Of a stretch of 64,000 nucleotides of DNA, positions 39,998 through 45,490 are shown one piece after another. The position numbers and the translations under genes were made by a program. The notes under the pieces were generated by a model. The model did no database searches. It was not told the DNA's origin and was given only the letters and a program-made list of their open reading frames with translations. The stretch covers positions 230,578 through 294,577 of the forward strand of contig ML992513.1 in the NCBI GenBank assembly GCA_010093995.1. The letters run 5' to 3'. Each line of letters begins with the position of its first letter. Position 1 is the first letter of the stretch. Source of the DNA: Elsinoe ampelina. Taxonomy: Eukaryota.

Positions 39998-40748
39998 ATG
40001 GTACGTGGACCCCTGGACTTACAAGCTGGTCGCATTGGATGAAGCGAAAGAGCTTGGAACATATGCAAAAAGAGCTTGAAATACTCGAATCGCTATCAGG
40101 CCTCGATAAACAGCTCGTTGGCTTGTCGGACTGCTGGCTTTGGGCGTCATGGCACGCGACACTGGCATATTGGGAAGCTTCGATTCCATACAGCGACCGC
40201 GATGCAAGACAGCACGACCTCAAGCAAGGCTGACCATATATACAGTCATCCCCGCGCCCTCAATCGCCGGTGAACGGTCCTGGTTCGCCCAGCACGGGGT
40301 CAACCACCGCTCGTCCTTCATCACCAAAGCCACCAGGAGGACCAGCCACAGCGATCAGGAGAAAGGCAGCAGCGGACAGGGCAGACAAGGTCGCAAATGT
40401 CAGGCCTAGCAGCACGAGAGCAGCTGGTGCCGGTGGCAGCAGCAGCACCATGTTGAGTACGTTCACACTATGACGTGCACCCGAAAACGCGGTTGGCCTT
40501 GTGATAGGGCCGGAACCGGCTGTACAGACACACGATAGGCATAACATACTGACTCTCTGCCAGGACTGTACACTGATGAGTCGCCGGGACTGAAGGTCGA
40601 CCCCTTTGTTGTCCTTGTCCTTTCTGTTGGTTTCATCATCTCGGTCGTCGCTCTCCACAGTAAGCTTGCAGTCTGTCGTCGGTAGATGCCAGTAGATGCT
40701 GACCACGATGCAGTCATCGCCAAGGTCACTCGACGATTCTCTTCTTAG
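39998..40748 (+). CDS. SBH1: Sec61 translocon beta subunit
   Basis: AIRRKAAA...GAGGSSSTML/LYTDESPGLKVDPFVVLVLSVGFIISVVALH/IIAKVTRRFSS. Exon 1 is ATG only; intron 40001-40245. Confidence 0.92.
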
Positions 40749-41149
40749 AGATCCGAGCATTGACAGCGACGCACATCATCTTACCACCCACCAATACCTC
40801 ATCTCTCGAGCACTTTTGAATCAGGATTGGATCCGGCAAAGGCTCATGTATTCTACCATTACCCAGAAAAGCTTTGTGCTTCTATAGCATTCGGCAGATA
40901 CTCTAGCAATTCACTTTGTATCCTCCTTCCAACTCTTGACGGCCAGTTCTGATAGCGAGTAATATGGGACGTTCCCGCATTCTGACCCCATCTATGCCGG
41001 CATAGCTCATAATGAAACGTGGTGTTCGAAGACTACGGAAAAACTGTGTTCATCTGTCACATGTCACTCTAGTTCATACTGCGGCGGCTCATGCAACAAA
41101 CTTCTCGAACAATTGCCAGCCTAAACTGGCAATTCGCAGAGAGCATCAA

Positions 41150-41181
41150 TTAGCCGCCCGTCGGAGCTGCTTTTTGGCTAA
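41150..41181. promoter_or_regulatory. Paired XlnR/Xyr1-type sites (TTAGCC 41150-41155, GGCTAA 41176-41181), with CreA-type SYGGRG sites at ~41212-41271
   Basis: Consensus matches upstream of the xylose reductase gene, a known XlnR target class. Confidence 0.55.
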
Positions 41182-41492
41182 AAGGTGCACGGAGCACATT
41201 TCACCCAGCGGCCCCGCAAATGCGATGCAACCCCCACCTTGAACCTCGAGATTCCCACGTCACAGCTGGAGCTTCCCATCTGCCTTACCATCCATAGCGG
41301 CAAAATAGTTCCCTCAACCACGATTGTCCTCATTATCCCAAGGCCTAACCCACCTGCCAAAATCTCTTGTCATTTCCCTAAACCCCATTTGTCTCACTAT
41401 CAAGAGCCGCGACATTCCCACAGCAACAAAGCATTGGTCGAGCCATAGATTGATCCTACATAACCAGCCCGACCCTGCAGAGGACCCTCTTT

Positions 41493-41700
41493 ATGACTTT
41501 TGTTCGAAATTTCTGTCGGTGCGTCAACTCTGACCAGAGCTTTGTTGTCCATAAGAAGGCTTGGGGCTGACCACACTACAAATAGCACCGCCCTCCCTCG
41601 ATCTTGCTCCTCGCTAGCCTGTGCCCCGCGACTCTACACTACCCCGCTTCAGAAATCTTTCAGCCCGCAAACACCGCTTTTCTACAGGACATACGCAGCC
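41493..41700 (+). CDS. Putative alternative 5' exons encoding a mitochondrial presequence for xylose reductase
   Basis: ATG 41493; intron 41519-41585 (GTGCGT...GCTGAC...TAG). Splices in frame to ATG 41701, giving 47 aa with no acidic residues. Confidence 0.65.
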
Positions 41701-42829
41701 ATGTCAGTCCCTAACGTCAAGCTCAACAGCGGCCACCAGGTGCGTATTGGATGCCATTGGTGCTGATCCGAGCTCAGTGTTGACGTGCTGCAGATGCCCC
41801 TCGTCGGCTTCGGTCTCTGGAAGGTCAACAACGACACTTGCGCAGACCAGGTCTACAACGCGATCAAGTCAGGCTACAGACTGTTCGATGGCGCCTGCGG
41901 TACGCAAAGATCAGAATACAGCAGAATGTAGAGCAATTTGACTGATTCCTCTCCAGACTACGGCAATGAGAAGGAGTGCGGAGAGGGCGTTGCGCGTGCC
42001 ATCAAGGACGGCCTCGTCAAGCGTGAGGAGCTCTTCCTCGTCTCCAAGCTCTGGAACTCTTTCCACGACAAGGAGCAGGTGAAGCCGATCGCGAAGAAGC
42101 AGCTCCAGGACTGGGGTATTGACTACTTTGACCTCTACATCGTCCACTTCCCCATTGCCTTGAAGTATGTTGACCCCTCTGTCCGCTACCCACCTGGCTG
42201 GCAAGACGAGGGTGGCAAGGACGTCACCCCCAGCAAGACCACTCTGGCCGACACCTGGAAGGCCATGGAGGAGCTCGTTGACGAGGGTCTCGCCAAGAGC
42301 ATCGGTGTCTCCAACTACAACGGTGCCCTGATCCTTGATCTCCTCCGCTACGCTAAGATCCTCCCCGCCACTCTCCAGATTGAGCACCACCCGTATCTCA
42401 CCCAGCAGCCTCTCATCGACCTGGTCAAGAAGAACGGTATTGCCGTAACCGCCTACAGCTCATTCGGACCCCAGTCTTTCCTCGAGCTCAACATGCAGCA
42501 AGCCAAGGACACCACTCTTCTGTTCGAGCACGACACCATCAAGAGCATCGCGGACAAGCACGGCAAGACCCCAGCCCAGATTCTCCTCCGTTGGGCCACC
42601 CAGCGCGGTGTGGCTGTCATCCCCAAGTCCAACAACCAGAGCCGTCTTGCCCAGAACTTGGACGTGTGCAGCTTCGATCTCAAGGATGATGAGATCAAGG
42701 CCATCTCCGGTCTCAACAAGGGCCTGAGGTTCAACGACCCGCTCGCCGTAAGTGATTGCCAGCCCTGTCTTTCGCACCAGCATACTGATATTTCACTAGT
42801 ACGGCGTCGCCCAGCCCATCTTCGCATAA
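41701..42829 (+). CDS. xyl1: NAD(P)H-dependent D-xylose reductase (aldo-keto reductase)
   Basis: [56 protein letters not shown] and IPKSN motifs. Three introns; ends YGVAQPIFA. Confidence 0.95.
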
Positions 42830-43134
42830 ATCAAGCACGAGCATCGACGTCTCGACGGCATGTTGCATGGAGCCATGTACAAGCAAGAGTCTGAAGGACG
42901 GACGGGAGGCGTGACGGATATGTGAAGACCGGCATGATACACTTTTGATGACATTTTTTTTGGGTACGGAATAGCTAGACTGTACATAGTGCGAACAAGT
43001 ACACCTGGTTCTCTCCAGCTGAATCGCTCCCACCTCAGACAGAAAATGTGTGTAAAGTTTGGTCATAAATCCAATCGTGTCTACAGGTATATGTACATCC
43101 TTGCCGGGCCAATGTCTTCTACAACATCTCTACT

Positions 43135-45222
43135 CTACTTGAACGGGTCCTCCTCGGGCCACAACATCTCCGTCTCCTCCACCACGCTAGGGCCATTCCA
43201 AATCTTTCCCTTCCCCCTCCCACCACCATCCTTCCACCTCTTCCCCTTCTTCTTCATCATCACCTGTCCCGGGCCTTCCTCGTTCCCCAAGCCATGCAAC
43301 CTCACCATCTCCGCCCTCTTCTCCGCCCTCTCCACCCCTTCCAACGCCCTACCCAGCACCTCCTCCACCTCCTCTCCCACATCCCACTCCCTCACCCTCC
43401 TCGCCGCCTCCCTCACCTCCTCCCCCGTGCCATGCAGTTCCCAAGCCCTCAACCCCGCCCTCACAGTCTCCCCATCCACCCTCGACCCATTTCTTTCACC
43501 TGTCCCGTGATCCCCTCGTCTCACCCAATCCACATGCCCAACCCACAACCCCCACACCCTCCCGACCCCCGCCCTGCCCCACCCCCCAAACCTCACCCCC
43601 CTATGCCTCTCAAACCCCGAAAACAACAGCCCCCACGTCCCCATCTCCACCCTCAACCCCGTCCCCATGGCCTCCTCCACCAACTCCACCGCCGTCTCCA
43701 ACTCCCCCGCCACCCACCCCGCGTGCTCGACCAGCATACGATACGTATGCGCATCCGGCGTCACGGGCGTGGCGTCCTGCACCTCCCTGCGCAGATCATG
43801 GTGGTGCCGCAGCTGCCACGCGGTGTACTTGAGCACATGGCCGGAGCGGCGTTGGGCGAGCCAGTCGTCGGCGGGGATGGCGGCGGGGCGACGGGAGGTG
43901 TGCAGGGCTTTCATGCGGGCGAAAGTGGCGAGGGCCGAGGCGAGGTCCCCCGCGTCGAGCAGGGCGCGGATCACGGCGTTGAGCGCGATGGTGTCGATGA
44001 GTTCGCCGGCGTGGAGCATGGATTTGTAGGCTTGTCGGATGCCCGGGACGGAGCGTTGGCGGCCCGAGTAGACGATGCGGAGGAGGTGGGTGTACCGGTC
44101 GGGTTGGAGGTGGCGGGTCGTGATGGTGTTGAGGAGGGTGCGGACGAGGGGGAGGGATTTGGCTTTGAGGGCTAGGACGCCGAGGGTGTTGAAGGTGACG
44201 ATGTCGCCGTGGGTGGAGGGGGTGGATTCGAATTGGTGAAAGAGGGAGAGGGCCCGTTCGAGGCGGGTGGTGGGGTCGAGGGTGGGGGAGCGGCCGATCC
44301 AGTGGAGGGAGGAGTTGAAGTCGCGGTGGGTGAGGGGGCGGGAGGAGGAGGTCATGTCGGACATGACGGTGAAGTATTGTTCGACTTGTTTGGTGGGTTT
44401 GGACTTGGTGCGGCGGAGGAGACTGAGGAAATCGGTGAGGAGGTGCTCGCTGATGTAGCAGACTCGGGGTGAGGGGATGAGCATGTATGCAGACCAGACT
44501 TGGTCTTTATCGGGCGTGGGCTGGTTGAGGAGCTCTCCGAAGCGGAAGACGGACGGTGCAGTCTTCTCGTCGAGTTGCTCGATCTTACGGGGTCTACCAG
44601 CATGTTGTGCCATGTGTCGTGTGACCAGATAGGTCTGTTTGGTTGTTTGTAGTCGGGTCTTCTCTTCCGCGTTGGCTTCTACCTTGGCCCGGATCTGAGC
44701 AATGTGCTTGTCATCCCTGATTCTCGTGCGTCCCTGTTGACGTGGATCTCTTTGTACTTCTTCCTTCCGCGGATCTGGTGGCTTCTCTTCGGGAGGTAGC
44801 ACACTCTCCAGCTCTTCTTCTGTGAACGGCACTTCGATTGCCTGGGCCGCAGCGGCAGAGTATCTCCGAGCTTTTGATAATGTAGACTGCGCTCGAGTGC
44901 TAGTCGCTGATAGCCCTGGCAGATTTCTGGTCCACCGAGGTCTATGGTATTCGTGTCTGCAGCGCTGGCTGGATTCCGAACCAGATATCGTGGTGGTGGC
45001 TGATCGCCCGACACAGGCTGTATGGCGAGAAGCGTGCTTGTATTCCTTCTCTTCGTGTTGTAGGCGCCCAGTACTACCCCTCCTCTCTTTCGAGCTTGCA
45101 TGACCCCTGTTGGTACTGTTTCCATGCTGAGAACGGTCGAATATAAGATGCTTCAGAAACCTTAGGCACTGAGGAGAGGGAATGGGAGCGCCTCTAGGAG
45201 CAGAGATGGGAGACAAGGACAT
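43135..45222 (-). CDS. Pentatricopeptide-repeat protein, probably mitochondrial
   Basis: 695 aa. PPR-like units (DIVTFNTL, PDRYTH, DTIALNAVIRALLDAGD, PDAHTYRMLV); basic N-terminus with RRYSAAA. Confidence 0.85.
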   Translation of the reverse strand: MSLSPISAPRGAPIPSPQCLRFLKHLIFDRSQHGNSTNRGHASSKERRGSTGRLQHEEKEYKHASRHTACVGRSATTTISGSESSQRCRHEYHRPRWTRNLPGLSATSTRAQSTLSKARRYSAAAAQAIEVPFTEEELESVLPPEEKPPDPRKEEVQRDPRQQGRTRIRDDKHIAQIRAKVEANAEEKTRLQTTKQTYLVTRHMAQHAGRPRKIEQLDEKTAPSVFRFGELLNQPTPDKDQVWSAYMLIPSPRVCYISEHLLTDFLSLLRRTKSKPTKQVEQYFTVMSDMTSSSRPLTHRDFNSSLHWIGRSPTLDPTTRLERALSLFHQFESTPSTHGDIVTFNTLGVLALKAKSLPLVRTLLNTITTRHLQPDRYTHLLRIVYSGRQRSVPGIRQAYKSMLHAGELIDTIALNAVIRALLDAGDLASALATFARMKALHTSRRPAAIPADDWLAQRRSGHVLKYTAWQLRHHHDLRREVQDATPVTPDAHTYRMLVEHAGWVAGELETAVELVEEAMGTGLRVEMGTWGLLFSGFERHRGVRFGGWGRAGVGRVWGLWVGHVDWVRRGDHGTGERNGSRVDGETVRAGLRAWELHGTGEEVREAARRVREWDVGEEVEEVLGRALEGVERAEKRAEMVRLHGLGNEEGPGQVMMKKKGKRWKDGGGRGKGKIWNGPSVVEETEMLWPEEDPFK

Positions 45223-45490
45223 GAATGGTCAAGCATGGTGTCGATTATCATCCAGCACATTCCGACCGGTGTTCATTGGCGCTCAATGGAGTGTCGTGGG
45301 GGGCTACTCGAATAATTCGCGATGGACGTCGGCGGGCGATCTGCTTGAAGCTCAGAAAAAATGCGGAGCGCTGATTGGTCGGCCAAAATTCAATGCCGAC
45401 TTCGAGGACATGGCAAGTTGAGGGCCAGTCGACAGCATCACATCAAAACATCTCATACACTGCTGGGATTGACTCAAGAGGGCCTCCAAG

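Follow-up and report, generated by a model that had tools for sequence, protein, structure and literature searches.

In yeast, HTS1, VAS1 and LEU4 carry two in-frame AUGs that give a mitochondrial and a cytosolic form, and SUC2 is transcribed into two mRNAs. The xylose reductases of model organisms start at a conventional methionine, and the enzyme, with which pentose catabolism begins in fungi and which is routinely used in the engineering of xylose and xylitol pathways, is modelled as cytosolic. For idpA of Aspergillus nidulans, encoding an NADP-isocitrate dehydrogenase, two transcription starts are described, and the longer mRNA supplies a mitochondrial targeting sequence that is left out of the shorter one (Szewczyk et al., 2001, as summarised in a passage of PMC3798809); a passage of a further paper (PMC7214817) reports a cryptic peroxisomal targeting signal type 2 (PTS2) upstream of fungal 6-phosphogluconate dehydrogenase, used via non-AUG initiation. 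Here we describe an aldo-keto reductase gene of the fungal xylose reductase type (41493–42829, plus strand) in a stretch of 64,000 nucleotides (nt) of Elsinoe ampelina (assembly GCA_010093995.1, contig ML992513.1, positions 230,578 to 294,577 of the forward strand), referred to below as the window and used for all coordinates. An upstream mini-exon of this gene extends the enzyme by 47 residues, and the make-up and conservation of these residues suggest that the xylose reductase probably also has a mitochondrial form.

The initial annotation had placed an ATG at 41493–41495, at the head of a 26-nt exon (41493–41518) that is followed by a 67-nt GT..AG intron (41519–41585), and all of these lie exactly there. 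The donor of this intron (GTGCGT, 41519–41524) is the same hexamer as the donor of the next one (41740–41745), the branch-site-like GCTGAC (41566–41571) and the acceptor TAG (41583–41585) are present as claimed, and joining the exon in frame to the conventional ATG at 41701 yields 47 first residues that are the peptide then proposed and that recur letter for letter in a stored protein (P0125). The predicted junction was found in contigs of four public runs: one contig each from X1, X3, X15 and X6 connects 41518 to 41586, skipping exactly 67 nt, GT..AG. The three coding introns, of 54, 57 and 52 nt, are likewise missing from these contigs, with the third joint of X6 slightly shifted (its place is taken by a 59-nt skip plus two other letters). 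X1, X3 and X15 are 99% or more alike and come from three studies under two organism codes, and X6 represents a relative. None of the runs is recorded as RNA and their RNA nature is a guess, though a likely one because each contig carries four precise GT..AG joints; the mini-exon joint is beyond chance because it is present in RNA. The contigs of X1, X3 and X15 also extend 5' of the ATG at 41493, to 41303, 41294 and 41357, respectively, and that of X6 reaches 41481; contig ends do not mark transcript starts, and 41294 is thus a minimum 5' extent. Stretches that the contigs do not cover, namely intron 1 and the region upstream of 41294, were kept out of the evidence. The upstream exon and intron 1 are real and spliced, and a long mRNA containing the first AUG exists, with contigs reaching 41294–41357 in three runs of three studies. 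With the joint in RNA and contigs upstream of it, neither of the outcomes named beforehand as telling against the exon, a lack of upstream transcripts and a lack of junctions, was found.

Exon 4 alone matched PF00248 (E = 2.3e-43, profile positions 51–290 of 291) in a Pfam search, so that the Aldo_ket_red domain is found over the mature protein, and in a search of solved structures it matched the Candida tenuis xylose reductase 1jez over residues 52–312 with an E-value of 1.7e-95, compared to 1e-57 for the weaker match to mammalian aldose reductases. The nearest named relatives in a protein search were entries named "D-xylose reductase xyl1" of Elsinoe species. The D and Y in DYGNE, the K in SKLW and the H in HFP, which we take to be the catalytic Asp-Tyr-Lys-His tetrad, are invariant columns in a 13-sequence alignment, and the window has all of them. 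Judged by these matches, the gene comes from an Elsinoe-type Dothideomycete and encodes an aldo-keto reductase of the D-xylose reductase kind, with predicted NAD(P)H-dependent reduction of D-xylose. Joining the five exons by coordinate (Table 1; exon 2 as a whole spans 41586–41739) gave a 1107-nt open reading frame (ORF) of 368 codons with one stop, which is terminal. The long-form protein therefore has 368 amino acids (aa), and the short form starting from the ATG at 41701 is an ordinary 321-aa enzyme.

The public record of Elsinoe ampelina (KAF2220156.1, 321 aa) shows 0/321 differences from the short form and begins at the second ATG (41701). The record of Elsinoe batatas (KAG8624416.1, 368 aa) contains the 47-residue extension with 0/47 differences, and differs from the window's long form at 4/368 positions, all of them in the mature part. 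The exon, described as hidden in the initial annotation, is indeed hidden in annotations that start at the second ATG, as for E. ampelina, and is not so in E. batatas, for which the 368-aa model was already public. Within the Elsinoe/Sphaceloma cluster, four of the five named records (P0003, P0123, P0124, P0126) start at the second ATG (321–322 aa) and only that of E. batatas (P0125) has 368 aa. A search with the extension alone among the 90% cluster representatives gave no candidate, because the Elsinoe representative is a model without the exon, while E. batatas, a member of that cluster, has it. Alignable longer N-termini were found in Aureobasidium (369 aa, a length shared by several of the 52 members of its cluster), Cercospora beticola and C. 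zeina (366 aa each), Pseudocercospora fuligena (370 aa), Cryomyces minteri (363 aa) and a Logan protein (358 aa). Extended models are already public and have apparently passed uncommented.

Metagenome and metatranscriptome contigs were scanned with the 13-sequence alignment, which yielded 80 fungal loci, 38 of them with R-x-[YF]-[ASTC] four or fewer residues before the conventional methionine. In 15 related loci, as in the window, the start codon lies in a mini-exon of 26 or 29 nt that is followed by a phase-2 intron of 60–108 nt, and this intron splits the same arginine codon in all 15 loci and in the window. Mini-exon models built for L040 and L059 were unlike the others and were dropped from later counts. 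The aligned extensions retain the first methionine, the split arginine, a leucine, a proline, R-x-Y and the second methionine. The extension, which the initial annotation had asked to be compared between orthologs, was found to be conserved in E. batatas, Aureobasidium, Cercospora, Pseudocercospora, Cryomyces and the 38/80 loci, and by this conservation it is coding sequence. Five other loci (L011, L033, L052, L077 and L080) have a contiguous upstream in-frame ATG, that is, a leader with no intron; their reductases belong to more distant lineages (55–68% identical to the Cryomyces query), and the contiguous leader of L080 is a basic one of 26 residues. The leader may predate the mini-exon/intron arrangement, or may have had more than one origin.

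The extension had been described as having five R, one K and no D/E, and this is borne out: the window's 47 residues include 6 K+R, 0 D+E and 11 S+T, which is the composition of a presequence (rich in Arg/Lys and Ser/Thr and nearly free of Asp/Glu), and each of 17 extensions contains 6–9 K+R and 0–1 D+E. In statistics pooled over 13 representative lineages, from which the near-duplicates L003, L004, L076 and L020 were left out, the reading frame held 2/529 D+E and 84/529 K+R with no stops, compared to 35/508 D+E, 40/508 K+R and eight stops in one of the other frames and 22/515 D+E, 47/515 K+R and nine stops in the second. The extension ends in R-T-Y-A, the cleavage-like R-x-Y-A motif noted before, and ends of the R-x-Y/F-A/S type occur in the relatives as well. 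In passages of two papers (PMC4986872, PMC7723863), the -3R motif RX(F/Y/L)|(A/S) is explained as mitochondrial processing peptidase (MPP) cleavage followed by removal of one residue by Icp55, and the end of the window's extension satisfies this motif. The predicted mature mitochondrial start is A-A-M-S-V-P, two residues before the cytosolic methionine. A mitochondrial destination is well motivated by composition, the conserved -3R motif and conservation of the extension, and we infer it from these.

Other targeting signals were also looked for. The PTS2 consensus, R-[LVIQ]-x2-[LVIHQ]-[LSGAK]-x-[HQ]-[LAF] or in its loose form [RK]-[LVIQ]-x5-[HQ]-[LAF], lies near the N-terminus, and 0/17 locus-derived extensions matched either the strict or the loose form, so a PTS2 reading was dropped; the lone loose match, read by eye, is R-L-Q-L-I-N-S-H-L in the C. 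beticola model. By eye, no hydrophobic core of the signal-peptide kind was seen in the printed extensions, and a protein Atlas search with residues 1–50 returned no usable match.

The methionine of the conventional start was present in every extension-bearing sequence seen, and the base at -3 of this second ATG is a purine in 17/17. The two in-frame AUGs have a putative targeting peptide between them. In the window, the ATG at 41493 is the first one from 41294 onwards (read by eye), and the spliced form contains no ATG in any frame from there to the ATG at 41701. Across 13 lineages, the 1595 nt between the two starts hold 0 ATG in any frame, compared to a mean of 13.1 (minimum 3 in 5000) in composition-matched shuffles and 23.6 predicted from the locus-wide density. 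Such an ATG-free interval would be expected if the second ATG has to be accessible to ribosomes, whether they load at a 5' end lying between the starts or scan past the first ATG. For C. beticola, two models of 366 and 320 aa were deposited under consecutive accessions and are identical over 320/320 residues; we infer that they are isoforms of one gene. The initial annotation had proposed isoforms made from alternative starts, to which the invariant second methionine, the ATG-free interval and the C. beticola pair lend weight, and of which the second transcription start and the import are predicted steps.

A TATA-like CATAAGAA had been pointed out inside intron 1, where it is indeed located, and it has canonical TATA counterparts in relatives. 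These counterparts (TATAAG, TATATA or TATAAA) lie in intron 1, 41–70 nt before the acceptor, in 5/8 lineages, and read TATAAGAA in the L001/L003/L004/L012/L076 group, TATATATA in L009, TATAAAG in L014 and TATATAAAAA in L018. TATAWR was observed in intron 1 of 5/8 lineages, where the density at the respective locus would predict 0.16 and shuffles 0.43, and the looser YATAWR in 7/8, the window included; the eight introns tested are those of loci other than the contiguous ones, the motif class was chosen after the sequences had been viewed and the lineages are related, so that these are not counts of independent events and make the lineages look more independent than they are. In relatives, three metatranscriptome contigs that resemble cDNA (L002, L006 and L008) start 5–20 nt before the intron-1 acceptor and do not include the first ATG, although contigs cannot demonstrate transcript starts, and the spliced mini-exon was seen in none of the cDNA-like metatranscriptome contigs of the intron-bearing type. 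From these relatives, we would place in intron 1 a TATA promoter that drives a short mRNA, for which the window's element is a candidate.

Taken together, we consider it on balance likely that a long mRNA gives rise to a mitochondrial precursor, and that a short mRNA or leaky scanning gives rise to the cytosolic enzyme. The long mRNA starts upstream of 41294–41357 and includes mini-exon 1, and intron 1 is spliced out of it, as seen in the contigs. Translation from the ATG at 41493 would yield a 368-aa precursor of which the first 47 residues would serve as a cleavable mitochondrial presequence, and once imported it would be trimmed by MPP and Icp55 at R-T-Y|A to an enzyme that exceeds the cytosolic form by only two residues. 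The 321-aa cytosolic enzyme would initiate at the ATG at 41701, reached mainly from a short mRNA that, by analogy with the relatives, would be transcribed from a TATA-type promoter within intron 1 and have the part of exon 2 at 41586–41700 as its 5' leader; in this species, leaky scanning past the weak first ATG may also reach 41701. More tentatively, and with a little less than even confidence, we suggest that many Pezizomycotina (Elsinoe, Aureobasidium, Cercospora, Pseudocercospora and Cryomyces, together with environmental lineages whose enzyme is no more than 55–66% identical to theirs) keep an old two-promoter architecture in their single xylose reductase gene, with the upstream mini-exon for the mitochondrial form and the intronic TATA for the cytosolic one.

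A number of observations weigh against this scheme, and several of them favour other explanations. One long spliced mRNA might be all that is made, with leaky scanning giving both isoforms and the intronic element being functionless in this species. The first ATG of the window has a T at -3, a weak context, and the second a G, so that the long protein may be a minor product; the interval between the two is free of ATGs; the contigs of the window's own organism represent the long spliced form, with the short transcript not among them; and the window's intronic element reads CATAAG, a non-canonical TATA. However, in most relatives (L001, L009, L012, L014, L015, L018, L052 and L080) a purine stands at -3 of the first ATG, which weakens leaky scanning as a conserved mechanism. 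The excess of TATAWR in the relatives' intron 1 and the metatranscriptome contigs that begin just before its acceptor also argue against a single mRNA, and we regard this explanation as rather unlikely. Splicing itself could act as a switch, where retention of intron 1 would turn the first ATG into the start of a 25-codon upstream ORF (the frame from 41493 stops at TGA 41568–41570, and an ORF at 41454–41570 ends within the intron), reinitiation would occur at 41701, and the ratio of spliced to retained transcripts would set that of mitochondrial to cytosolic enzyme. A cDNA-like contig whose coding region is contiguous (L005, 53–262) does keep its 60-nt intron 1, but this is a single contig that may derive from pre-mRNA, or from the DNA of a gene whose coding region has no introns, while every contig of the window's organism has the spliced joint. 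As it would also leave the conserved TATA box unexplained, a splicing switch appears very improbable.

The extension might also be translated for a purpose other than mitochondrial import, directing the enzyme elsewhere or serving a different role, or the first ATG and its frame might work mainly as a translational damper of the main ORF. The maximum hydrophobic moment (11 residues, 100 degrees) of the window's extension was 0.72 compared to a shuffle mean of 0.49, exceeding the shuffles only marginally (fraction 0.044), and in five relatives it was not above shuffles (fractions 0.16–0.55), so that amphipathicity fails to stand out in 5/6 peptides. The close relative in X6 seems to tolerate a frameshift in the extension: its contig is without 8 nt at about 41685–41693, within the R-T-Y codons, which would put the first ATG out of frame there; either a genuine loss or faulty assembly may account for this. 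At 42001 and 42307 the same contig agrees with E. batatas, sharing two of its four substitutions, and the remaining three differences in its extension are two synonymous changes and one Thr-to-Arg. Passages of the papers found also treat xylose reductases as cytosolic. Against a non-mitochondrial role, about 20 lineages keep the frame open although its length varies, acidic residues are nearly excluded from it and basic ones doubled compared to the other frames, and R-x-Y/F-A/S stands directly before the mature start in the 38 loci, a motif that the passages of PMC4986872 and PMC7723863 present as the defining cleavage context of matrix-targeted precursors. With PTS2 signals and signal-peptide-like cores also absent from the extensions searched, we find such a role highly unlikely. 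For the mitochondrial reading itself, it counts as a further difficulty that the motif is absent in 42/80 loci, so that the leader is not universal among xylose reductases, although some of these 42 are truncated contigs and some belong to a different reductase subfamily. The guessed RNA nature of the runs and the post hoc motif class and relatedness behind the TATA counts stand on the same side.

Table 1. Features of the xylose reductase gene and its flanks, in window coordinates.
Feature	Position	Strand	Basis or remark
Inverted GGCTAA hexamer pair, upstream promoter region	41150–41155 (-), 41176–41181 (+)		Motif positions
5' untranslated part of the long mRNA	41294–41492	+	Minimum extent from contig reach; no ATG, by eye
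Coding mini-exon 1, first start codon	41493–41518	+	M-T-F-V-R-N-F-C plus two bases of an R codon
Intron 1, 67 nt, phase 2	41519–41585	+	GTGCGT ... GCTGAC ... TAG; joint in X1, X3, X15 and X6 contigs
TATA-like CATAAGAA, 36 nt before the acceptor	41550–41557	+	Core element of a candidate internal promoter that would drive the short mRNA
Branch-site-like GCTGAC, its A 15 nt before the acceptor	41566–41571	+	Sequence
Part of exon 2 encoding extension residues 9–47	41586–41700	+	No ATG in any frame, no in-frame stop, no D/E
R-T-Y-A codons, -3R type processing motif	41686–41697	+	Motif match; cleavage predicted
Second, conventional start and first 13 enzyme codons	41701–41739	+	Context GCC ATG T, G at -3
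Intron 2, 54 nt	41740–41793	+	Contig joints
Exon 3	41794–41899	+	Contig joints, ORF joining
Intron 3, 57 nt	41900–41956	+	Contig joints in X1, X3 and X15
Exon 4, bulk of the aldo-keto reductase domain	41957–42747	+	PF00248 and 1jez matches
Intron 4, 52 nt	42748–42799	+	Contig joints
Exon 5, stop TAA at 42827–42829	42800–42829	+	ORF joining
TGTACATA in the 3' untranslated region	42981–42988	+	Sequence; probably a chance match

The two GGCTAA hexamers of the upstream region are 26 nt apart and lie about 115–145 nt upstream of the furthest contig reach. GGCTAA, which we take to be a site of the XlnR/Xyr1 type (xylanolytic activator), is not enriched across the window (74 found, 97 expected). The pair may be XlnR-type sites and, if so, a xylose-responsive promoter would drive the leader-encoding long mRNA. 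In the 3' untranslated region, the Puf-type TGTACATA noted in the initial annotation is present; it is not conserved, since among 23 extension-bearing 3' regions it was found in one, that of the window. A Puf3-type element, of the kind carried by mRNAs for mitochondrial proteins and tested as UGUAHAUA in loci that have at least 100 nt of 3' sequence, was seen in 0/22 of the other extension-bearing loci and in 0/22 extension-less loci, and TGTACATA is probably a chance match. An Rfam scan of 40000–44000 matched no family.

The same-strand gene just upstream of the reductase ends with a Sec61-beta domain (40545–40685, plus strand; PF03911, E = 1.1e-13). In an Acarospora record (P0068, 434 aa), PF03911 and PF00248 are fused in one model, and the Sec61-beta/xylose reductase neighbourhood therefore seems to be conserved across classes; the fused model is probably a mis-annotation that spans the leader region. 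Downstream, a convergent 697-codon ORF (43135–45228, minus strand) that matches PPR_2 weakly, not reaching the Pfam cut-off (E = 4.6e-06), ends at a distance of about 300 nt from the stop codon of the reductase. A single contig of X3 spans 42360–43196, beyond the ends of the contigs from the other runs (42999–43018), and so the 3' ends of the reductase and the convergent gene may overlap in RNA.

If the enzyme does have a mitochondrial form, the matrix of many plant-, rock- or lichen-associated ascomycetes would gain an as yet unrecognised NADPH-consuming aldose/aldehyde reductase, which would bear on redox balance, aldehyde detoxification and polyol metabolism. Pentose/polyol and NADPH metabolism of these fungi would then be divided between compartments in a manner absent from current metabolic models. 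The part suggested for such an isoform in the initial annotation, in a polyol/NAD(P)H shuttle or in aldehyde detoxification, is speculation. Annotations would also change, as the records of E. ampelina, E. australis and E. fawcettii, and many more records besides, start at the second ATG, and the intron-embedded TATA box would provide a compact, testable case of a promoter in a fungal intron of 60–110 nt. In full-text literature searches of limited coverage, no description of a natural mitochondrial or dual-targeted xylose reductase was found, and two Aureobasidium genome papers (PMC11905612, PMC4227064) mention the reductase gene, with no localisation in the passages concerned.

The closest described arrangement is that of idpA. 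Here too a single gene of a filamentous ascomycete encodes an NADP(H)-linked enzyme and has two in-frame starts, with a putative mitochondrial leader encoded only between them and a shorter product without the leader. Unlike in idpA, the first start of the xylose reductase gene lies in a separate mini-exon of 26 nt and the candidate second promoter in the following intron; the protein ends in P-I-F-A and has no C-terminal peroxisomal targeting signal type 1 (PTS1), and, in the present case, a second start of transcription and the localisation are predictions. As in the genes HTS1, VAS1, LEU4 and SUC2 of yeast, the long mRNA would include the targeting peptide and the short mRNA would start between the AUGs, whereas those genes have no intron between the starts and belong to other enzyme families. 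The 6-phosphogluconate dehydrogenase case, as far as the passage of PMC7214817 describes it, is similar in that 5' sequence regarded as untranslated encodes a conserved putative organelle signal for a cytosolic sugar/NADPH enzyme, and differs in that the signal here would be reached from a normal AUG in an extra exon and is of the mitochondrial type (PTS2 in 0/17). In its catalytic part the protein resembles the xylose reductase of Candida tenuis (PDB 1jez/1k8c/1mi3), as the exon 4 and PF00248 matches indicate, and its short form is an ordinary enzyme of this kind; unlike the solved xylose reductases, which start at the conventional methionine, this gene and many of its relatives add a basic leader of 40–57 residues.

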